Shown piece after piece: positions 1,950-13,017 of a stretch of 64,000 nucleotides of DNA. Source of the stretch: a virus (taxonomy: Duplodnaviria > Heunggongvirae > Uroviricota > Caudoviricetes); the IMG/VR virus record IMGVR_UViG_2648501839_000008; one strand, written 5' to 3'. The notes under the pieces are model-generated. The model worked only from the letters and a program-made list of their open reading frames with translations. It was not told the origin of the DNA and made no database searches. The position numbers and the translations under genes are program-made. The stretch's first letter is position 1. Every line of letters starts with the position of its first letter.

Positions 1950-3644
1950 TTAATTATTAAGCAATCTGCTCACACGTAGTTTGTTAAGACTTGATCTAGA
2001 GGCCAGTTTCGTTAATGCACCTATTGCTTTATTCGTGATTTTTTGCTGTTCTTCTGTTAGTTCTTGCATACTTTTGAATCTGAGCAACCCCTTTCTCACT
2101 AAATCCAAAGCATCCTGATTGCGGGATAGTATCCACTTTAAATAATCATCTTCAGAGAAACTGTTAAGATATGCTATGTCACTATGATTAAATTTGCCTT
2201 CAATTATTTTGTATAAAACATTCTCTAAATTAGTCTCTTCAGGCTTCTTATCCATCAATTTTTTTTGAATTAGCAGACCTAACTTTTCGTTACCAAATAT
2301 CTCTACATACAAATTCCGAAAAGCAGTATAAGCATCATCTTGGCTAACAAAGGCATCTGCATATGCCTCTATATAACTATCACAATCAATCTCCAATCTA
2401 TTTAAGATATCAATCAAGCCTATGAAGTGAGCAACAGGTATGTGTGAAAGATTGTCGTTAATTACACATTTTATCTTAGAAATAAACTCAGATTCATTGT
2501 CCTTGAATGAGTCACTAAAAATATCCCAAACATTGTTAACATCACATAAAGCCTTGTGTTCTTTATATTGTTTATTTTTTTCTTCTATTATACCTCGAAT
2601 ATTGCTTTCAGTAGAAAGATAACCATTCTTGAGATAAAAATCTATGTCATCATCGAAAGCAATTTCCGCTCGTTCATAAATAACATCAAGACTATTAATA
2701 AATGAATATACAGAATCATCCTTTTTATCATCTAACATGTAATCAAATACATGTATGTTTTTAATTGATTCTTTAAACAAGGCATAATCAACACCTGGAA
2801 CACCAGAATAGTAAACCACTGAAAACAGAACCAATCTATTGATAAAACTTTCTCTAACCTTATCCTCTGCCAAGCTTAGCTCATTCCTAAGATTAACCAG
2901 AGATGTTTTTATTTTATTTAATATACGGATATTTTTAATGCCTAAGTCATTTGCTAAGACTTTTAACAAAAGAAAATCAGAATCAGTTTCATAAAAAACT
3001 TTACGTAAGTTCTTCTCAGGCGTAGGATCGTATTTTATTTCGACATCAATTACTTTTTCTCTGTACTCTAAAAACTGTTTTTTTGCAGTTTCATCATGTA
3101 AATTATCTTCATTTAAAATTAGAACAACTTTGCAACCTTTTCTTCTTGCTAATTCATCAATTACCCCCATAATTTCTTTAACTTCTAGCGAATTACCTTT
3201 TCTTTCAACATCATCAATACAAACCAAATAATTATTAACAAATTTATACTCAAGAGATGACAGCAGGTTATCTGTTTTGAACCCAAAAAAATCGTTCTTT
3301 CCGAAATGTATTAAAAATTTTGACAAGGAGTTGTATTTCAACCATCCCCAAAACCCATTTCTATAACGAATCATAGTTCGATCCGTTTCAGATAAAATTA
3401 GTTCTTTATATTTCTTTTCATTAATTGGTGTGGCACAATGATAAAGAGCTTTTTTAATATCACCAATAGAGTTAACCCCAAACAAAGAAACATACGAATA
3501 TGCATTAAAATCTAATCCTTCAGAATGCTTAGTATAAAAACTATTCCAATAATGAGTTTTACCAACGCCCCAATCTCCTTTTATGACGGCAACCCGATGA
3601 TCTGAAACTAGAAAATTTTTTAGAAATGATTCTATCGATTCCAT
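1950..3644 (-). CDS. KAP-family P-loop NTPase (candidate defence or abortive-infection protein), AT-rich cargo gene
   Basis: N-terminal Walker A VIKGDWGVGKTH, Walker B-like LVCIDDVERKG about 140 aa later, long helical C-terminal region; AT-rich codon usage unlike neighbours; probable ATG at 3644 with AAAGGA RBS (track start 3653 is TTG). Confidence 0.55.
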   Translation of the reverse strand: MESIESFLKNFLVSDHRVAVIKGDWGVGKTHYWNSFYTKHSEGLDFNAYSYVSLFGVNSIGDIKKALYHCATPINEKKYKELILSETDRTMIRYRNGFWGWLKYNSLSKFLIHFGKNDFFGFKTDNLLSSLEYKFVNNYLVCIDDVERKGNSLEVKEIMGVIDELARRKGCKVVLILNEDNLHDETAKKQFLEYREKVIDVEIKYDPTPEKNLRKVFYETDSDFLLLKVLANDLGIKNIRILNKIKTSLVNLRNELSLAEDKVRESFINRLVLFSVVYYSGVPGVDYALFKESIKNIHVFDYMLDDKKDDSVYSFINSLDVIYERAEIAFDDDIDFYLKNGYLSTESNIRGIIEEKNKQYKEHKALCDVNNVWDIFSDSFKDNESEFISKIKCVINDNLSHIPVAHFIGLIDILNRLEIDCDSYIEAYADAFVSQDDAYTAFRNLYVEIFGNEKLGLLIQKKLMDKKPEETNLENVLYKIIEGKFNHSDIAYLNSFSEDDYLKWILSRNQDALDLVRKGLLRFKSMQELTEEQQKITNKAIGALTKLASRSSLNKLRVSRLLNN

Positions 3645-3695
3645 TAGTATCAATCCTTTAATTCATATATTGGGCGTAACAAACGCCCAATATAA

Positions 3696-4055
3696 TCAAC
3701 CTTTCTTCATCAACTCTCGTTTAATTTCATCGGTACGCATCGTAACGTCGGCAGCTGTGATCGCCTCGTTAAGCTTCACGATGTCCTCGATTTCCTGCGG
3801 TGACTTCTCTGCCAGATGGAAAATGGCTGCTCGAATCACGTCAGAACGAGTGAACTTCTCGAAGCGAGGGATGAACTTCATCATCTCCAGCAGTTCGAAG
3901 TATTCGTCTTCCAGTGACATTGTGCGGCTTTTAATTTTCTCTTTGCCACGAGTCGGGCGTCCCTGTGGTCTGACTGGTTGGCGCAAAGGAGTTGTGTTCT
4001 TAGCCGGTGCATCAGGCTCTTTGCGCTTTGCTAGGTCACCCATTTTCATGGACAT
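3696..4055 (-). CDS. ParG-like ribbon-helix-helix partition protein
   Basis: 119 aa, basic disordered N-terminus plus C-terminal RHH-like segment; start overlaps parA stop (TAATG coupling). Confidence 0.45.
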   Translation of the reverse strand: MSMKMGDLAKRKEPDAPAKNTTPLRQPVRPQGRPTRGKEKIKSRTMSLEDEYFELLEMMKFIPRFEKFTRSDVIRAAIFHLAEKSPQEIEDIVKLNEAITAADVTMRTDEIKRELMKKG

Positions 4056-4723
4056 TATTCTTCTTCCTCCAGACTCAACAGATAATCTACAAATTCTTCA
4101 AACTCGGCTTCAGCCTTTTTGTCGCGCTCGCTACCGGTCATTTCGAAGATAGAACGACCAGACTCTTCCGCATCATCGTAGACGTTGCGGTTATATAGAT
4201 TGACTGGCGCAGACTCGATGCCAAACGTCTCGACAATCTCTTTAGCCGCCAGAATGCGAGACACTTGTGATGGCAAAGCCGGGCACTGGTTCATGACCGC
4301 GCGGACCTTCACTTTATCGTTTACATTACGAACATTGTCGATAATAGGATCGATGTCACGCAGAGATTTCAAATCACGACGCTTAGGACGAAGCGGGATA
4401 ATGATAACGTCGGCCATCAGCATCGCTTGTCGCTGAATTTCGGAGTCAAAGCCACCAGCATCTACCACTACAAACTCAGCTCTACCCTGAAGCGATTTTA
4501 GGTGCTTAATGATGTCATCCTGGACGTATGCAAAAGGAATCAGCTCAAGGTCTTCGTTCTGTCGACGGTCTTCACACCAGCTCGTTGTCGTGCGCTGAAT
4601 ATCTATATCGGTAATATAAACCTTCTTCTTCTTTTTGACTTTCAGGCAAACGGCAATTTGCTGGGCAACGGTGGATTTGCCAGGCCCGCCCTTTGTGCCG
4701 CCAACCACAAAGATCTTGGTCAT
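4055..4723 (-). CDS. parA: ParA/MinD-family partition ATPase
   Basis: Deviant Walker A GGTKGGPGKST at the N-terminus; 222 aa, small type-Ib ParA size; RBS AAGGGA. Confidence 0.7.
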   Translation of the reverse strand: MTKIFVVGGTKGGPGKSTVAQQIAVCLKVKKKKKVYITDIDIQRTTTSWCEDRRQNEDLELIPFAYVQDDIIKHLKSLQGRAEFVVVDAGGFDSEIQRQAMLMADVIIIPLRPKRRDLKSLRDIDPIIDNVRNVNDKVKVRAVMNQCPALPSQVSRILAAKEIVETFGIESAPVNLYNRNVYDDAEESGRSIFEMTGSERDKKAEAEFEEFVDYLLSLEEEE

Positions 4724-6197: not shown

Positions 6198-6428
6198 TTA
6201 TGGTACTTTTCTGCCCCATCCACACAATCGCTCCCCTATCATATTGTGAAAAAGTACCTCTCTTTCAGTCTCTTCGGTCATGAGATCATCACGGCTGATG
6301 TATAGCGGTGTAGCCGCATCGCAGAAAAGCACACCAGCGGGTTGAGGCTTAATCACGCAACCACTTATTGTGCAACTCATGATGAACAGTAGAAGCATCC
6401 TTGCTCCGTAACTCATCAAGTGTTTCAT
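6198..6428 (-). CDS. o-spanin (Rz1-like outer-membrane lipoprotein), overlapped with the i-spanin gene
   Basis: Alternative frame across the Rz-like gene; signal peptide with lipobox ...FIMSCTISGC; start placed at internal Met (track ORF is 6198-6506). Confidence 0.4.
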   Translation of the reverse strand: MKHLMSYGARMLLLFIMSCTISGCVIKPQPAGVLFCDAATPLYISRDDLMTEETEREVLFHNMIGERLCGWGRKVP

Positions 6429-6600
6429 TTTTGACGTCCAATGTGCTTTGAAGTCGTTTCCTGTCTTCCTGTTTTGCCTTCTCTTCCATTGCTCGTCGCG
6501 CCGCATTTCCGCCCATCGTGTAAGCGCCGACCAGAACGAAAAGAACGGCAGCCAGCGTAATCAAAGCAACTTTTAGCTTTGTCATCAGGCTGCCTAGCAT
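6349..6600 (-). CDS. i-spanin (Rz-like)
   Basis: N-terminal TM segment (LKVALITLAAVLFVLVGAY) followed by a charged coiled-coil region; contains the Rz1-like ORF in another frame. Confidence 0.5.
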   Translation of the reverse strand: MLGSLMTKLKVALITLAAVLFVLVGAYTMGGNAARRAMEEKAKQEDRKRLQSTLDVKNETLDELRSKDASTVHHELHNKWLRD

Positions 6601-6601
6601 A

Positions 6602-7321
6602 TTAGACCATCCCTTTCTGGTGTCTTCTTACCTGCGACCAGGCAATGAATCCGGCCACAACAATAGTGGCAATGCCGAAGATGATGCGTACTGTATCCCC
6701 GCTAGAGATATGACCTTGTGCCTTATCCATAGCAGCGGAAACCTGCGGCATAACATCGGCCAGCTGCGCCAGACCAATACCTGCTGTAACAGTTGCGCCT
6801 GCAGTTTCTTTAGTTACAGGAACAGCCTTCACGGTTTTCACCGGCTTAACGACGCCAGCTCGACGCAGACCTTCCTCAATAACTTCTGCCGCATACCAGG
6901 TGTTCAGCGTTTTTAGCGGACCTCGCCCATTCTCATGGCGAATGATTGCCTCAACCAAAGGTCGAAGAATGTCGTAATCATGCAGATCGATGATCATGTC
7001 TGCGGTTACACCAACGGCTTTAGACACCTCATTAATGTAGGCGTCAGTGTTGTTTTCATTCGGCGGTGCCCAACGTTCAATAACTTCACGAATGGTATCG
7101 ATACTTGAGCCGTCTTTTGCGCGACGTTTGTCGTGGTAGGTAATTAGAGTCACCGCCAGCGCACGAATCCCCCAAACAGGGTCTTTAAACGTGCAAAAGC
7201 GCGGTTCGTCTGGATTCGCAATCAGACCTTGCCACGGTGATCCTTTATCAAGATTACCGGGGTTATTATTACGAATGCCTCTCGGAGTCTTCATCCTTGA
7301 TCTCCTGTTATTGCAGTCCAT
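6602..7321 (-). CDS. Putative lysis protein / peptidoglycan hydrolase candidate with C-terminal membrane anchor
   Basis: Lies between the holin-like and spanin genes; conserved-looking RNNNPGNL motif; C-terminal hydrophobic segment IIFGIATIVVAGFIAW; family not recognised. Confidence 0.35.
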   Translation of the reverse strand: MDCNNRRSRMKTPRGIRNNNPGNLDKGSPWQGLIANPDEPRFCTFKDPVWGIRALAVTLITYHDKRRAKDGSSIDTIREVIERWAPPNENNTDAYINEVSKAVGVTADMIIDLHDYDILRPLVEAIIRHENGRGPLKTLNTWYAAEVIEEGLRRAGVVKPVKTVKAVPVTKETAGATVTAGIGLAQLADVMPQVSAAMDKAQGHISSGDTVRIIFGIATIVVAGFIAWSQVRRHQKGMV

Positions 7322-7643
7322 TTTTTACGCCATACGCGGCTAACCCCAAAAGCAGTGCAGTAATAATGAACGACGTTATTTTAGAAACAATGCCGCCAAA
7401 GAACCCACTGGAGATGGAATCTAACCGGTTAAGGAGTTTGTCCAGGTTGGAGTGTTGAATACTATGTTGCGCCGGGGTCATATCACCAAAGTAGGTTTTC
7501 AGCTGATCATTGACCTCCTGGCCAATTTCTTCACGTAGCTCTTTACCTAATTTGCCAACAACCTCCCGAGCAACGATCGCGGCAATACGCTCAACTTGCT
7601 CTGTTGTAACGCCCGCCATCTCGTTCGACATGTTTTCCTCCAT
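7308..7643 (-). CDS. Small membrane protein (holin candidate)
   Basis: 111 aa with a single C-terminal TM segment; first gene of the putative lysis cassette. Confidence 0.3.
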   Translation of the reverse strand: MEENMSNEMAGVTTEQVERIAAIVAREVVGKLGKELREEIGQEVNDQLKTYFGDMTPAQHSIQHSNLDKLLNRLDSISSGFFGGIVSKITSFIITALLLGLAAYGVKNGLQ

Positions 7644-7693: not shown

Positions 7694-7714
7694 GTAGGTG
7701 TGTACTTACTTATC
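7694..7714 (-). promoter_or_regulatory. Class-B palindromic site
   Basis: gtaggtgtgtacttacttatc about 50 nt upstream of the gene starting at 7643. Confidence 0.45.
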
Positions 7715-7943
7715 ATTCAACATTGCAACGGACTGATGAGAAAGCACCTACTCCAACCCATCGCCAGTTATAGATGCTACCCGCTTTGTATAAGGTATAG
7801 TCGTTCACTTTTTTAACAGCATATATGGGTATGACTGTCTCCTGTCCACCAATGATAGCCTCACCATAACATATGGGTGTCGGCAATTTCTGACAGCCAG
7901 TAAGAGAGAGAACAACAGCTATTGTTAGAAATAATCTTTTCAT
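7713..7943 (-). CDS. Small lipoprotein (Cor-like superinfection-exclusion candidate)
   Basis: Signal peptide plus lipobox LSLTGC, 76 aa, located just after the tail fiber genes. Confidence 0.4.
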   Translation of the reverse strand: MKRLFLTIAVVLSLTGCQKLPTPICYGEAIIGGQETVIPIYAVKKVNDYTLYKAGSIYNWRWVGVGAFSSVRCNVE

Positions 7944-7953
7944 CGTTTACTCA

Positions 7954-8562
7954 TCAGTTATACAGATTTCTATTTATTACCGGTACTCTGCCATTTACGC
8001 TAAAACTATGGCCGCCATTAAGTTGGTTTACGAATATGGAACTAACAGTATTTCCATATGCCGCATATCCATAAACCATTGTCATGGCCCCGCCCGGTAC
8101 TGGAACCGCGAACACATTTGCATATGTTGGGATTATCGCTGGCGGGTAATCAAAAACATGCCCTCCAGAACTGTTCCACTCCGTATTATTAAGAAAGGTA
8201 AATGAAAGTGGGATATTTGCCGTATTATAGATCTCCTCTCCTCGCGCATTGAAAAAACTCATGCCCCAAGTTTCTTTTTTGGCTATACCTTTCGAAAATA
8301 CGTATATCGTGGCACTAGAGTCGCTACCCTGACCTCCGAAACTGTAAATCACCTGGTTGTTACGCACTATTCTGTTGGCTATTAATGAAACAGCTTTCGA
8401 ATAGGCAACAAAAATCATCGGTGAACGATCTGGAGATATTTGGGTGTTAAACTCTGTCCCGCCAGACAAAGAAACAACCTGCTTTCTCTGAAAAACGATA
8501 GGAGACAAAGAAGGAGACATCCAGACCTTCCCGTCAGATCGATATATCTTGCTTCCGTACAT
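7954..8562 (-). CDS. Hypothetical protein (202 aa), tail-fiber associated
   Basis: ORF track; start overlaps the upstream stop (TAATG). Confidence 0.35.
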   Translation of the reverse strand: MYGSKIYRSDGKVWMSPSLSPIVFQRKQVVSLSGGTEFNTQISPDRSPMIFVAYSKAVSLIANRIVRNNQVIYSFGGQGSDSSATIYVFSKGIAKKETWGMSFFNARGEEIYNTANIPLSFTFLNNTEWNSSGGHVFDYPPAIIPTYANVFAVPVPGGAMTMVYGYAAYGNTVSSIFVNQLNGGHSFSVNGRVPVINRNLYN

Positions 8563-8816
8563 TATTTTTGAAAAACCAATATGTTTAAATTGCCACTAGC
8601 TCCAGACCATGAAATGGTATTTCCAGAAACCGTAAGACTTGTGTATTTCCCATTGGTTACGTCCATTATGTAATAGTCGATTCCCAATCCCGCCTCAACC
8701 TCATATGTTCTACTTCCAGAACCAGAGGGAGTAAAATAATCGAGGTAATAAACAGGGGCCAACGCATCGACCATCTCCTGTCTTGATGGCGACCATACCT
8801 GTGCACCATAGCTCAT
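8562..8816 (-). CDS. Hypothetical protein (84 aa)
   Basis: ORF track; coupled to the downstream gene. Confidence 0.35.
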   Translation of the reverse strand: MSYGAQVWSPSRQEMVDALAPVYYLDYFTPSGSGSRTYEVEAGLGIDYYIMDVTNGKYTSLTVSGNTISWSGASGNLNILVFQK

Positions 8817-8876
8817 AAATATATCCTTATACTTTTAAGCAGGGGCTGGTTTAGTTCCAGCCCCGATTGAAGTTGT

Positions 8877-10499
8877 TTATTCTTTAGGTGAATTTAACTT
8901 CGTTTCAAGCTCCTCAACCCTTTTGGTCAATTGCTGAATATGATGAATGAGTGGTACAACCAAACGCTCATACATCACTCCTTCAGCGACCATACCATTT
9001 GAGGAAATATCTTCTGGAGAATCATTATTTGTTGGTTCACGCCAATGGACATATTGCGGGGCAATCTCACCAACCTCTTCAGCAATAAGGCCGTAATACC
9101 CCCAATCCTTTCGGTCACCTCGACAAATTGAACGATACCAAACAGGTCTTAATGACAAAAGTTCATCAGCATATCGATCTTGTAATGTTTCAATATCCTT
9201 TTTATAGCGCCTTGAAGATGTTGAACGCCAAACTGTATTGATACCTGGGTTTGGATCAATGTACATATTGGCACCGCTAGTAGTTGTGCCAATATCCCAT
9301 ATAGCAAACCCTCCACTACCGCCTGATTTGACAACCAGTGTTTCAGCAATAATATCCAGGTTGCCACTATAGCCTGTCAGTGATGATCTGCTTGCATAGG
9401 AACTTAGAAGGTTTGTTACCTCTGTTTTCGTATAAGCATTAAGGTTAGCCGCAGTCAAAGTAATATCGGCAGAGCCATCAAACGCCACACCAGCAATTTT
9501 CCTTGCTGTCTGCAATTTTGTGGCTGTTGCGGCATTACCAGTAGTATTCTGATTACCGGTTGTATTCACACCAGGGATTGAATCCTTAGCAGTATATACC
9601 TGCGCCCACGCTGACCATGCCGCATCTGTGGTATCTCTTCGTGAGCGAATGAAAACTGGCGCATGTGCACCGCTCGTACCACTCCAGCCAATAAGCAACT
9701 CGCCCTCACCAGCAGCACTCGCACCTTTCATGTGCAATACGTTGCCATACGTGGTCGGGTAGCTATTGTTGTACGCCTCGTACATTTGAATGCCAGCAGT
9801 GCCTTGAGTAGAGCCGCTTAATGCCGTAACTCGGCCACGAGATACCAGTGTATTAATGTTGATATCGCCTGAGCCATCAAACTTAACACCATTGATGTTT
9901 CTCGCTGTTTGCAACTTCGTAGCTGTTGAAGCATTACCGTTCAAACTACCATTTACGCCACCAGTCACATTTAGTCCATTACCAATTGATACCGCACCGC
10001 TGGTATTATTAATTGTAATAGGTCGCAAACCGTTCCATGAACCTAATGTGTCTCCTGATGCTGTTAGCATGAAATATGTGTTCGATCCATCATTACGGAT
10101 AAAGAACCCAAAGCTACCGTAAGCAATGCGGAAACCATTTGCATATTTTGAAATGATCTCGCCAGAAGATGTCAAACCTCCAGATAATGTACCACCGGTA
10201 AGAGGTAATGCACCGACATCAGAGGCTGTTGGTTTGTTTTTCGTGTTATATACTCTTCGCCATCCCGGAGAATAATCTGTGCCATTAAATACATAGATAA
10301 ACTCCGCATTAGTGAGAGCACCAGAGACACTCGTCGTTGTGGCCGTTGTTATACGGATCGTATAATTGTTTGAGCTACTACCGTTATTAAATACCTCTAT
10401 AACAGCTCCTGCCAATGGAATAACGCCACAACCAGTTTCACTATTTGGTATGGTTGCACTATTGGCATAGGCCCACGCACTTTGTGTTAAATGCTCCAT
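8877..10499 (-). CDS. Tail fiber/spike protein with C-terminal intramolecular-chaperone (peptidase S74-like) domain
   Basis: GNASTATKLQTAR tail-fiber repeat motifs; C-terminal ...RRYKKDIETL...GLIAEEV... resembling self-cleaving chaperone domains. Confidence 0.6.
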   Translation of the reverse strand: MEHLTQSAWAYANSATIPNSETGCGVIPLAGAVIEVFNNGSSSNNYTIRITTATTTSVSGALTNAEFIYVFNGTDYSPGWRRVYNTKNKPTASDVGALPLTGGTLSGGLTSSGEIISKYANGFRIAYGSFGFFIRNDGSNTYFMLTASGDTLGSWNGLRPITINNTSGAVSIGNGLNVTGGVNGSLNGNASTATKLQTARNINGVKFDGSGDININTLVSRGRVTALSGSTQGTAGIQMYEAYNNSYPTTYGNVLHMKGASAAGEGELLIGWSGTSGAHAPVFIRSRRDTTDAAWSAWAQVYTAKDSIPGVNTTGNQNTTGNAATATKLQTARKIAGVAFDGSADITLTAANLNAYTKTEVTNLLSSYASRSSLTGYSGNLDIIAETLVVKSGGSGGFAIWDIGTTTSGANMYIDPNPGINTVWRSTSSRRYKKDIETLQDRYADELLSLRPVWYRSICRGDRKDWGYYGLIAEEVGEIAPQYVHWREPTNNDSPEDISSNGMVAEGVMYERLVVPLIHHIQQLTKRVEELETKLNSPKE

Positions 10500-13017
10500 T
10501 ATTTTGCAATAACGTCACTAACTGTGCTGTTGTTATTGCTCCGCCATTACTTCCTGTAGTTAACCAACCAGTAGGAGATGCCGGGCAACCTATATTTGCT
10601 GGCGACAAGGAAATATTTGCCGAGCCGTCAAACGACACCCCATTGATAGTACGCGCAGTCTGCAACTTCGTTGCAGTAGCCGCGTTGCCCGTTGTATTCT
10701 GATTACCAGTCGTATTAACACCTGGCAAATTAATATTCGCAGTACCATCAAAGCTCACGCCGCCGATAGTTCTTGCCGTCTGAAGTTTTGTAGCAGTTGC
10801 AGCATTACCAGTGGTGTTCTGATTACCCGTAGTATTTACACCTGGAAGGTTGATATTTGCAGAACCGTCGAAACCAACTCCACCGATAGATCTTGCCGTC
10901 TGCAATTTCGTTGCTGTACTTGCATTACCATTTAATGTTCCGGTGATCCCACCAGTAACAGACAACGGACCTGAAACTGTTCCTCCGGTTGTTGGCAGTG
11001 CTCCAATATCTAACGGCGTCGGTTTCTGATGTGTGCTATACATCGTATAAACAACACCATCGGTAACGCTGGAAGGCTTACTCGCTGAATATGTTGGCGA
11101 TGTATAAATAGAAACTGTCGCATTTGCAGTACAATCCCAATGGATATTTACACTAGTCGCATAATTGCCAATCTCAACGTAAATATCATATGTATCGCCG
11201 GATGTGTTGATCCAGGCGAAATTCGTTAATCCGACGGCTGTACGCTTCCACAAAGCACCGGTAATCCCTTTGGGGTTTCCATTGCCTGCTCGTAGAACCA
11301 GTTCTGAAATGCCTGCCTGATGTGGGGAGCCGACGTTGTAACCAGCGCCACCAATCAATGCGATGTAAACGATGGAACTCGCTTGTGGCATGGTAACCGT
11401 AGCCAGTTTGAACCACCCAGCCCCGCCAGAGAAAGACATCGTTACTGAATTTAAAGTACCAATATCTTTCGGCGTTAATGTGATATCCGCAGTCAGTGCT
11501 TTACCGTTAACTTTTCGGTTAGATGGCACCCTGCTATTCGCATTGTCATTGGCTGCTTTAACTGCTTTTGGCGTTGCGGCCAGCGATTCACTGGTGCTGT
11601 CGACAGCACTGCTAAGTTTCACAACACCTTTGGTGGTAAGGCTTGCGTCTTCCATCGCAACGGCACCGGCAATCTCTTCAGCACGATCAGCGGCAGCTTC
11701 TGCACGGGTCGCAGCGGATTCAGCAGCAGCTTTGCTCTGAGATGCAGCCGTCGCACTGCCTGCCGCCTCTGTTGCTTTCGTGGATGCCGTTGAAGCACTC
11801 CCCTTCGCAGCTGATGCCTGCTTGGTCGCCTCATCTTTTGAAGCGGATGCCGAGGTGGCTGATGCAGACGCAGAACTTGCAGATTCAGCAGCTGCCTCTT
11901 TAGAGGAAGCGGCATTATCTTCAGAAGCCTTTGCATTTGTTTCAGAGGATTTTGCTGCCGATGCTGAATTTTTAGCGGCTGTAGCCTGATTCGTCGCCTC
12001 AGTCGCTTTTGCGGTAGCTGTTGTCGCTGACGACGACGCGCTTTCCGCAGATTTTCCTGCCGCAGTTGCACTTGATGAAGCACTATCCGCACTTGCTGAG
12101 GCTGCGCTTGCTGACGCTTCTGCCGCAGATTTCGAACTGTTTGCAGACGATGCACTCTGCCCGGCTGCCGTTTCAGATGCTTTTGCGTTTGTCTCTGACG
12201 CTTTTGCTGCCTTAGACGAATTTTCAGCTTCTGTTGCAAATGATGCAGCCGCGTTTGCACTCGATGAAGCGTTAGTCTCTGATGCTTTGGCTGCATCCTT
12301 AGATGCAGAGGCACTGGACGCAGATGTTGCTGCCTCCGATGCTTTGGTCGACGCTACAGACGCTGATTCTGCTGCCGCTAGATATGCTGATTCTGCGTTC
12401 GTTTCAGATTTTTTCGCAGCAGTTGCACTCGCACTTGCGGCACTTTGTGAGGATGCCGCAGCGGATGCACTTTGAGACGCTTGAGAGGCTTTTTCTCCAG
12501 CGGTATTGGCGCTTTCTGCTGCTGCGGCAGCACTGGCCGCCGCCTCACGAGCTTTGTCACCAGCGGCATCAATCGCGTCAGTGTTATTTTTATACCACTC
12601 AACGTTTTCGTTGTGCTCGTTGACGATCTGCATCAGCGGCTTAACGGTCACTTCTGTACCGTCTTCACGCTCGATTGTCACCTCATCCAGAGCAGTCAAC
12701 CAACTACGCATGGACTTGGAATCAGCCGACATACGCGACATTAGCGCGGTAAAGCGCGCGCTAAACTGTGTTAAGTCGCCTTCATAGGTAGTAATGATTC
12801 GGCACGGAACTTCAGACTGAGTTTCACCGGTATAAGGTTCTGAGAGAACAATGTTCGTATCGCTTGTTACGCGCTTGATCTCATACAGCTTATTGTCGGG
12901 GCCAATGACGATCATCCCCGGCAACACACCATTAGCTGTTACGTTCCAGGCTGTCCCAACCCCAACCAGAGTATTACTACCCTGTGTAAATGTGATAGTA
13001 CCTTCCCTGTACCACAT
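10459..13017 (-). CDS. Side tail fiber protein (852 aa)
   Basis: Conserved tail-fiber N-terminal region, long Ala/Ser-rich repetitive shaft, repeated GNASTATKLQTAR...FDGSANI motifs. Confidence 0.7.
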   Translation of the reverse strand: MWYREGTITFTQGSNTLVGVGTAWNVTANGVLPGMIVIGPDNKLYEIKRVTSDTNIVLSEPYTGETQSEVPCRIITTYEGDLTQFSARFTALMSRMSADSKSMRSWLTALDEVTIEREDGTEVTVKPLMQIVNEHNENVEWYKNNTDAIDAAGDKAREAAASAAAAAESANTAGEKASQASQSASAAASSQSAASASATAAKKSETNAESAYLAAAESASVASTKASEAATSASSASASKDAAKASETNASSSANAAASFATEAENSSKAAKASETNAKASETAAGQSASSANSSKSAAEASASAASASADSASSSATAAGKSAESASSSATTATAKATEATNQATAAKNSASAAKSSETNAKASEDNAASSKEAAAESASSASASATSASASKDEATKQASAAKGSASTASTKATEAAGSATAASQSKAAAESAATRAEAAADRAEEIAGAVAMEDASLTTKGVVKLSSAVDSTSESLAATPKAVKAANDNANSRVPSNRKVNGKALTADITLTPKDIGTLNSVTMSFSGGAGWFKLATVTMPQASSIVYIALIGGAGYNVGSPHQAGISELVLRAGNGNPKGITGALWKRTAVGLTNFAWINTSGDTYDIYVEIGNYATSVNIHWDCTANATVSIYTSPTYSASKPSSVTDGVVYTMYSTHQKPTPLDIGALPTTGGTVSGPLSVTGGITGTLNGNASTATKLQTARSIGGVGFDGSANINLPGVNTTGNQNTTGNAATATKLQTARTIGGVSFDGTANINLPGVNTTGNQNTTGNAATATKLQTARTINGVSFDGSANISLSPANIGCPASPTGWLTTGSNGGAITTAQLVTLLQNNGAFNTKCVGLCQ

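Follow-up and report, generated by a model that had tools for sequence, protein, structure and literature searches.

What does the small lipoprotein gene encoded between the tail fiber genes and the lysis cassette of an SSU5-like phage-plasmid do, and, if it mediates superinfection exclusion, which receptor does it act upon? The gene was noted in a 64,000-nucleotide stretch of DNA (virus record IMGVR_UViG_2648501839_000008; hereafter, the window), which, judging from its sequence, is an SSU5-like phage-plasmid of Escherichia coli; across the region, its identity to many non-mobilizable E. coli plasmids of ~110 kb amounts to 96-99.7%. The sequence-only reading of the locus had described a 76-aa protein with a signal peptide and a lipobox at positions 7713-7943, located between the tail fiber accessory genes and the lysis cassette, and had suggested that it could be a Cor-like exclusion protein. 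Both the description of the protein and its placement were borne out: the open reading frame is exact and lies on the minus strand, with an LTGC lipobox and Cys17, and it is preceded by genes for 84-aa and 202-aa proteins and followed by genes for a putative holin, an endolysin and Rz/Rz1.

According to the ORF list and the sequence, cor occupies positions 7713..7943 of the minus strand (76 codons, 231 nt), with the ATG start codon at 7943-7941 and the stop codon at 7715-7713, and its 76-aa precursor translates as MKRLFLTIAVVLSLTGCQKLPTPICYGEAIIGGQETVIPIYAVKKVNDYTLYKAGSIYNWRWVGVGAFSSVRCNVE. Residues 1-16 (MKRLFLTIAVVLSLTG; 7896..7943, minus strand) read as a lipoprotein signal peptide in which a basic n-region (K2, R3) precedes a hydrophobic core and the lipobox L-T-G-C; the N-terminus runs MKRLFLTIAVVLSLTG followed by CQ, and the lipid-attachment Cys17 is encoded at 7893-7895. 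This N-terminus conforms to the PROSITE-type lipobox rule, and the only Pfam match, to the lipobox model LPAM_1, is weak and below threshold (17.3 bits versus a cutoff of 20), Pfam being devoid of a Cor family. In E. coli, lipoproteins lacking Asp at position +2 are directed to the outer membrane; because the +2 residue of Cor is Gln rather than Asp, the protein is predicted to be sorted to the outer membrane.

Comparison with Cor proteins, the check proposed along with the initial suggestion, revealed strong homology, with 42-47% identity to the proteins of HK022, N15 and phi80 and up to 59% to that of SSU5. The window protein matches the NCBIfam model NF047972 ("phage exclusion lipoprotein Cor," an equivalog) over residues 1-74 with a score of 80.5 bits, the curated cutoff being 31. 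Since signal peptides can give rise to spurious similarity, the mature domain (residues 17-76; 7716..7895, minus strand) was also scanned separately, and its ~59 residues alone scored 66.4 bits on the same model. Similarly, PHROG 1119 ("Cor superinfection exclusion protein") was matched with E=3.6e-30, residues 1-74 aligning to profile positions 1-75 of 78. Given that two curated profiles match the full length of the protein (E<=1e-22) and that the match persists when the signal peptide is left out, cor is not a chance ORF. In tblastn searches, 194 phage records matched the window Cor and, among the matches listed, most were annotated as Cor, although one phage record names a homologue "lipase chaperone." The best of these matches were SSU5 (59% identity), Stx2 phage 86 and its relatives (58%), and HK022 with many lambdoid phages of the mEp and HK series (47%), whereas the Cor proteins of N15 and phi80 are 42% identical to the window protein. 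In a large protein database, the single-sequence query retrieved only three fragments and the family was recovered by a profile search, in which 269 database proteins matched, many of them named "phage exclusion lipoprotein Cor." PADLOC returned no match for cor or for the two genes preceding it. Thus, with full-length matches to both profiles and 42-59% identity to named Cor and Cor-like proteins, the Cor-like identity initially proposed is supported, and the 76-aa protein is, by sequence comparison, unambiguously an ordinary, full-length and well-conserved member of the Cor family.

Conservation was scored in an alignment of 78 Cor homologues. Four residues, C17, C25, G55 and C73, are invariant in all 78 and are present in the window Cor, as are G32, G33, Y41, T50, Y52, A54, W60, W62, V63 and F68, each conserved in at least 90% of the sequences, so that the GG/AG/WxW core of the family is retained. 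The window Cor departs from the family at three positions that are conserved to at least 90%, namely, V38 (Ile), P57 (Ile) and F58 (Tyr). The two invariant cysteines of the mature domain, C25 and C73, probably form an intramolecular disulfide, a feature described as common to Cor and to Llp of phage T5 (PMC9586334).

The AlphaFold2 (AF2) model of Cor, built from the 78-sequence alignment, has a mean pLDDT of 88.4, rising to ~95 across residues 21-70, and we confidently predict that mature Cor adopts a small β-strand fold. Among viral models (BFVD), the best match of this fold is a phage superinfection exclusion protein (E=2e-5, TM 0.66), and hits 2-6, with E values from 1e-3 to 7e-2, come from phages DT571/2, slur09, Stubb and PSTCR5, which we take to be T5-like; they are small proteins, for the most part carrying a lipoprotein annotation. 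By contrast with these viral models, a Foldseek search of the Cor model against the PDB yielded no match at E<=0.001, the top matches being generic Tudor/SH3-like barrels; Llp (7qjf) ranked 46th, with an E value of 0.81, TM scores of 0.43/0.49 and an rmsd of 3.6 Å over 52 columns, a match that is not significant. A search of PDB sequences with the single Cor sequence found no match, Llp included, whereas the Cor profile ranked Llp (8a60_B) first, at E=0.23, aligning mostly the signal peptide and the first Cys. Overall, these model-based fold searches agree weakly with an Llp-type mechanism.

The genomic context of cor is equally characteristic of the family. The gene is the last one in a three-gene cassette downstream of the tail fiber genes and is preceded by genes for an 84-aa protein resembling N15 gp22, annotated as an "outer membrane protein" (8562..8816, minus strand; PHROG 557, E=1.3e-24), and a 202-aa protein resembling N15 gp23, annotated as a "membrane associated protein" (7954..8562, minus strand; PHROG 425, E=5.5e-49). 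Because the two upstream genes correspond to the gp22/gp23-like pair of N15, the "cor cassette" of the window is complete. The gp22-like protein is 69% identical to SSU5_023, and the gp23-like protein, a putative distal tail or receptor-binding component, is 75% identical to its SSU5 homologue and distantly related to N15 gp23, phi80 gp23 and T1 gp31. In its 202-aa form, the gp23-like gene starts at an ATG (8562) that overlaps the stop codon of the gp22-like gene, and the resulting N-terminus, MYG..I...DG, is conserved in SSU5, tonijn, Stx2 phage 86 and N15; in RefSeq and in the SSU5 record the protein is given as 188 aa, 14 residues shorter, probably owing to a wrong start. The order gp22-like, gp23-like and cor is shared by SSU5, N15 and phi80; in T1 the pair is present, with cor inverted on the opposite strand. 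More generally, a three-gene locus follows the tail-tip gene in T1, N15, phi80, HK022 and ES18. One study, citing Wietzorrek 2006, ties the cor cassette to FhuA-dependent phages (PMC13164509), and in the BASEL study such loci were considered to encode dedicated receptor-binding proteins together with a cognate superinfection exclusion protein, their alleles following receptor specificity (PMC8594841).

On the other side of cor lies a lysis cassette composed of a putative holin (7308..7643; PHROG 5093), a 239-aa endolysin (6602..7321; PHROG 873), Rz (6349..6600; PHROG 1026, E=1.2e-22) and an embedded Rz1 lipoprotein (within 6198..6506; PHROG 1275, E=2e-22), all on the minus strand. The endolysin has no Pfam domain above threshold and carries a C-terminal hydrophobic segment, IIFGIATIVVAGFIAWSQV, which looks like a membrane anchor, a feature unusual for an endolysin. 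In SSU5, the corresponding order is fiber, an 84-aa gene, a ~200-aa gene, Cor, holin, endolysin, Rz/Rz1 and ParA. The window is 94-96% identical to the SSU5-like phages PhiR41_1 and Cyrano over the lysis cassette, and this homology ends at the 3′ end of cor (~7714), where a mosaic junction is apparent (window ~7714; L002, 10793..11365). In PhiR41_1, two unrelated small genes, one of them encoding a hydrophobic product, occupy the position of cor, and the side fiber genes differ as well. As the homology of the lysis cassettes stops at cor, we conclude that cor, the gp22/gp23-like pair and the fiber behave as an exchangeable module.

Several other features of the window are recorded here in their own right. 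Compared with the near-identical plasmid pAVS0968-B, the window carries a 17-bp deletion at ~10479/10480 (within 10459..10499). The side tail fiber is encoded by a single 1385-aa gene in pAVS0968-B but by two overlapping minus-strand ORFs in the window, one of 852 aa (10459..13017) and one of 540 aa (8877..10499); the latter carries Gp34_trimer and Peptidase_S74 chaperone domains. Since the alignments of all the top plasmid matches listed break off here, the deletion appears to be confined to the window element. It may reflect either a sequencing error or a genuine frameshift, the latter being reminiscent of the stf frameshift of lambda PaPa. A GC-rich 8-bp hairpin with a 7-nt loop, GGGGCTGG-AACTAAA-CCAGCCCC (8842..8864, minus strand), identified by reading the sequence, is placed between the stop codon of the tail fiber gene (8877) and the start of the gp22-like gene (8816). 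Being without a T-run, it was not called by the terminator scan; termination, attenuation and RNA stabilization are all possible roles. Terminators are annotated between J and the gp22 homologues in T1 and N15. Beyond the lysis cassette, a 567-aa KAP-family P-loop NTPase (1950..3653, minus strand; Pfam PF07693, E=1.5e-5), which matches the PADLOC candidate defense family PDC-S49 (E=2.8e-22), is encoded in a variable region adjoining ParA (4055..4723).

The distribution of cor is that of the element carrying it. At 95-100% nucleotide identity, the 231-nt gene was found in 68 of 5,426 complete E. coli genomes (~1.3%), and in every one of these it is borne by a plasmid, all being SSU5-like phage-plasmids. 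The protein is 96-100% conserved in more than 70 plasmids, and related SSU5-like plasmids of Enterobacter, Salmonella and Citrobacter also carry Cor at the same position. In the current RefSeq, an identical gene is named "cor: phage exclusion lipoprotein Cor" (WP_033803601.1), so the identity of cor was already known at the level of annotation. In the gene tables of the 2024 PLSDB release, cor is unannotated in the E. coli SSU5-like plasmids (e.g., NZ_CP124394.1, 35224..35454), and the 2026 RefSeq adds it under the new locus tag QJP72_RS26575; cor is thus an example of a short gene that was recovered only once an NCBIfam model existed. The gene, its family and its position are known, and the remaining question concerns the receptor specificity of the SSU5-type allele and the timing of its expression.

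Comparison with characterized exclusion systems suggests how the protein might act. The Cor proteins of phi80, N15, HK022 and mEp167, lysogenic conversion factors that exclude FhuA-dependent phages, belong to the same NF047972/PHROG 1119 family; they are 77-78 aa long, compared with 76 aa in the window, and have the same lipobox Cys and two further Cys residues. As in the window, cor of these phages closes the gp22/gp23-like cassette behind the tail tip or fiber genes, but there the cassette directly follows J, whereas in the window it follows the side fiber genes, and the pair of the window belongs to a different allele class. Within the protein, the linker after the lipid Cys is 3 residues shorter in the window, and YPF is replaced by SIY. 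The "Cor-like" gp25 of SSU5 (SSU5_025) and its homologues on SSU5-like plasmids of Enterobacter, Salmonella and Citrobacter are encoded in the same type of element and with an identical gene order from fiber to Rz/Rz1, although they are only 57-59% identical to the window protein overall (62% in the mature part) and the fiber region of SSU5, which has a fiber and a separate adhesin, differs from that of the window. Cor of T1, a virulent member of the Drexlerviridae, is of the same family and is encoded in the same three-gene locus, but is only 22-28% identical to the window Cor and, unlike in the window, its gene points the opposite way to the pair; T1 Cor has been reported to block FhuA and to act early after infection (PMC13164509).

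Outside the family, Llp of T5 (PDB 8A60, 7QJF) resembles what is predicted for Cor: it is a small lipoprotein of the outer membrane containing an intramolecular disulfide, and a common β fold has been put forward for the two proteins in published models (PMC13164509; 2026 bioRxiv paper); its sequence similarity to the window Cor is not significant (profile E=0.23, as above), and it is encoded beside a single receptor-binding protein, pb5, rather than beside a gp22/gp23-like pair. Llp binds FhuA from the periplasm and allosterically closes its extracellular loops, a periplasmic mechanism that has been structurally solved for the Llp-FhuA complex and proposed for Cor (PMC9586334; 2026 bioRxiv paper). 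Rtp45 of phage RTP (PDB 9RPS) is likewise a small exclusion protein encoded beside receptor-binding protein genes; it acts on LptDE, changing the conformation of the receptor so that the receptor-binding protein cannot bind. The receptor in that case is LptD, and no sequence or fold match of Cor to Rtp45 was returned.

Based on the family assignment, the lipoprotein signal and these precedents, we are largely confident that the gene encodes a receptor-blocking exclusion lipoprotein of the Cor family in an SSU5-like phage-plasmid, with FhuA as its most likely target. Under this model, Cor would be lipidated and sorted by the Lol system, placing the mature domain at the periplasmic side of the outer membrane, where the ~59-residue disulfide-stabilized β domain would bind an outer-membrane phage receptor from its periplasmic face and allosterically switch it to a state unusable by phage receptor-binding proteins. 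Adsorption or DNA entry would then be blocked for phages that need this receptor. If expressed late, Cor would chiefly serve to protect cells that are infected or induced and to keep progeny virions from adsorbing to debris; lysogenic conversion, that is, production of Cor from the resident plasmid prophage, is also possible.

The expression signals around cor bear on the latter 2 scenarios. The stop codon of the gp23-like gene and the ATG of cor are separated by 10 nt in the window and by ~10-11 nt in SSU5, whereas a 111-nt gap precedes cor in phi80 and N15, and in the phi80 record promoter signals and a transcription start are annotated within it. On the coding strand of the window, no promoter-like site matching at least 9 of 12 positions was found between 8561 and 7944; one such site is located at 8589-8561, and another promoter-like site, at 8908-8879, has no conserved counterpart in SSU5. 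The counts returned by the promoter and terminator scans in the region were no higher than in shuffled sequence. The 69-nt spacer between cor and the holin gene contains no terminator and has an unremarkable RNA fold (z=0.78). Thus, because of the 10-nt gap, the lack of a promoter-like site of its own and the lack of a terminator before the holin gene, cor is probably co-transcribed with the late tail and lysis genes. For the same 10-nt gap and absence of an upstream promoter-like site, expression of cor in the prophage state is unsupported, and no independent moron-like promoter of the kind annotated for phi80 was found for the window cor. Such a promoter is not a universal feature of the family, as T1 and SSU5 differ from phi80 in this respect as well.

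The location of cor invites 2 readings other than exclusion. A small lipoprotein gene that shares its strand with the holin gene and ends 69 nt before it, with no intervening terminator, might be an accessory of the adjoining lysis cassette, akin to an o-spanin. However, the cor ORF matched no spanin family, the cassette already has Rz with an embedded Rz1, and PhiR41_1 keeps the lysis cassette (94-96% identity) with unrelated genes in place of cor, the homology to Cyrano likewise ending at the cor 3′ end; with a complete Rz/Rz1 pair in the window and the PhiR41_1 cassette maintained without cor, we rejected a role in lysis, which we regard as extremely improbable. Looking instead to the other neighbors, cor directly follows the fiber and distal-tail genes, and the homologue labeled "lipase chaperone" could hint at a structural or assembly accessory of the tail fiber; alternatively, cor might be a decaying, nonfunctional remnant, as parts of the module may decay, the side tail fiber gene carrying the 17-bp frameshifting deletion. 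Fiber assembly takes place in the cytoplasm and is incompatible with a lipoprotein export signal, and decay is unlikely in view of an intact ORF and a protein that is highly conserved among the plasmids and possesses all invariant residues of the family. We therefore consider a fiber accessory or a remnant very improbable too, if slightly less so than a lysis protein, and retain receptor-blocking exclusion as the probable function of Cor.

The identity of the receptor is a less settled matter. FhuA, the TonB-dependent ferrichrome transporter, is the reported target of the Cor proteins of T1, phi80, N15, HK022 and mEp167. Over the mature region, identity of the window Cor to the proteins of phi80, N15 and HK022 is 45-47%, whereas T1 Cor is 31-36% identical to those three; because the window Cor lies nearer to this group than T1 Cor does, and both this group and T1 Cor are reported to act on FhuA, FhuA is the best guess for the window protein as well. 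We regard it as the probable target, with moderate confidence. Literature searches yielded neither exclusion data for the window and SSU5 alleles nor an experimentally determined target of SSU5-type Cor, and no report of a terminal protein receptor for SSU5 was found; this phage is reported to adsorb to the LPS core through a fiber adhesin, which tempers the case for FhuA. The tail tip was considered as a further marker, given that the last ~200 aa of the window J protein are homologous to J proteins of phi80, HK022, N15 and T1; PhiR41_1, which is devoid of the cor cassette, has the same C-terminus, and the J C-terminus is for this reason uninformative with regard to FhuA use.

The gp22/gp23-like pair has a distribution of its own. 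The pair of the window is closer to those of tonijn (Tempevirinae; E=9e-22 and 7e-9 for the 2 proteins) and Stx2 phage 86 (E=1e-12 and 8e-9) than to those of N15, phi80 and T1, for which the pairwise matches are marginal (E between 2e-4 and 0.1), and homologous pairs are present in many records of Stx-converting phages. Short-tailed Stx phages are not known to be FhuA phages. The family of the pair, as seen in tonijn and Stx2 phage 86, reaches beyond FhuA phages. In Escherichia phage tonijn (1952..3115), the pair is preceded by a gene for a 91-aa lipoprotein with 2 further Cys residues, possibly an exclusion protein of a divergent Cor/Llp-like type. Stx2 phage 86 (4986..5213 and 8441..9345) has the pair apart from cor, which follows a fiber adhesin gene.

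These relationships raise the alternative that the Cor subfamily of SSU5 and the Stx phages blocks a receptor other than FhuA, either another TonB-dependent transporter or the target of the neighboring pair itself, in which case Cor would provide cognate self-exclusion. The window Cor groups with those of SSU5 and Stx2 phage 86 (58-59% identity, as against 42-47% to the Cor proteins of FhuA phages) and shows subfamily-specific changes at 3 nearly invariant positions, its partner pair belongs to the tonijn/Stx-phage allele class rather than to that of N15, phi80 and T1, and, as pointed out above for the BASEL analysis, alleles of these loci follow receptor specificity; in addition, Cor-like proteins have been found in phages using BtuB (PMC13164509). 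Nevertheless, NF047972 is an equivalog model whose cutoff the window protein passes by a wide margin, T1 Cor is far more divergent (22-36%) and yet is reported to act on FhuA, and in Stx2 phage 86 the closest Cor is not adjacent to the gp27/gp28 pair, from which it follows that Cor and the pair are not strictly coupled. On this evidence, a non-FhuA target for the subfamily appears rather unlikely, and we attach similarly limited credence to the broader proposition that the SSU5/Stx-phage branch of Cor has either been retargeted to a non-FhuA receptor or serves purely for hetero-exclusion at FhuA from a late operon. If the branch has been retargeted, Cor would be matched to the terminal protein receptor of the SSU5-like phage-plasmids; if Cor blocks FhuA while the phage itself uses another receptor, it would be a pure hetero-exclusion, that is, host-defense, gene encoded in a late operon.

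With FhuA as the favored target, hosts in which Cor is expressed would become resistant to FhuA-using phages (or to those relying on another cognate receptor), while ferrichrome uptake might be impaired. Exclusion by Cor, if the protein is expressed, would also be relevant to the prediction of host ranges for phage therapy. The significance of the finding is modest; the receptor blocked by this branch of Cor would bear on the terminal receptor used by SSU5-like phage-plasmids.
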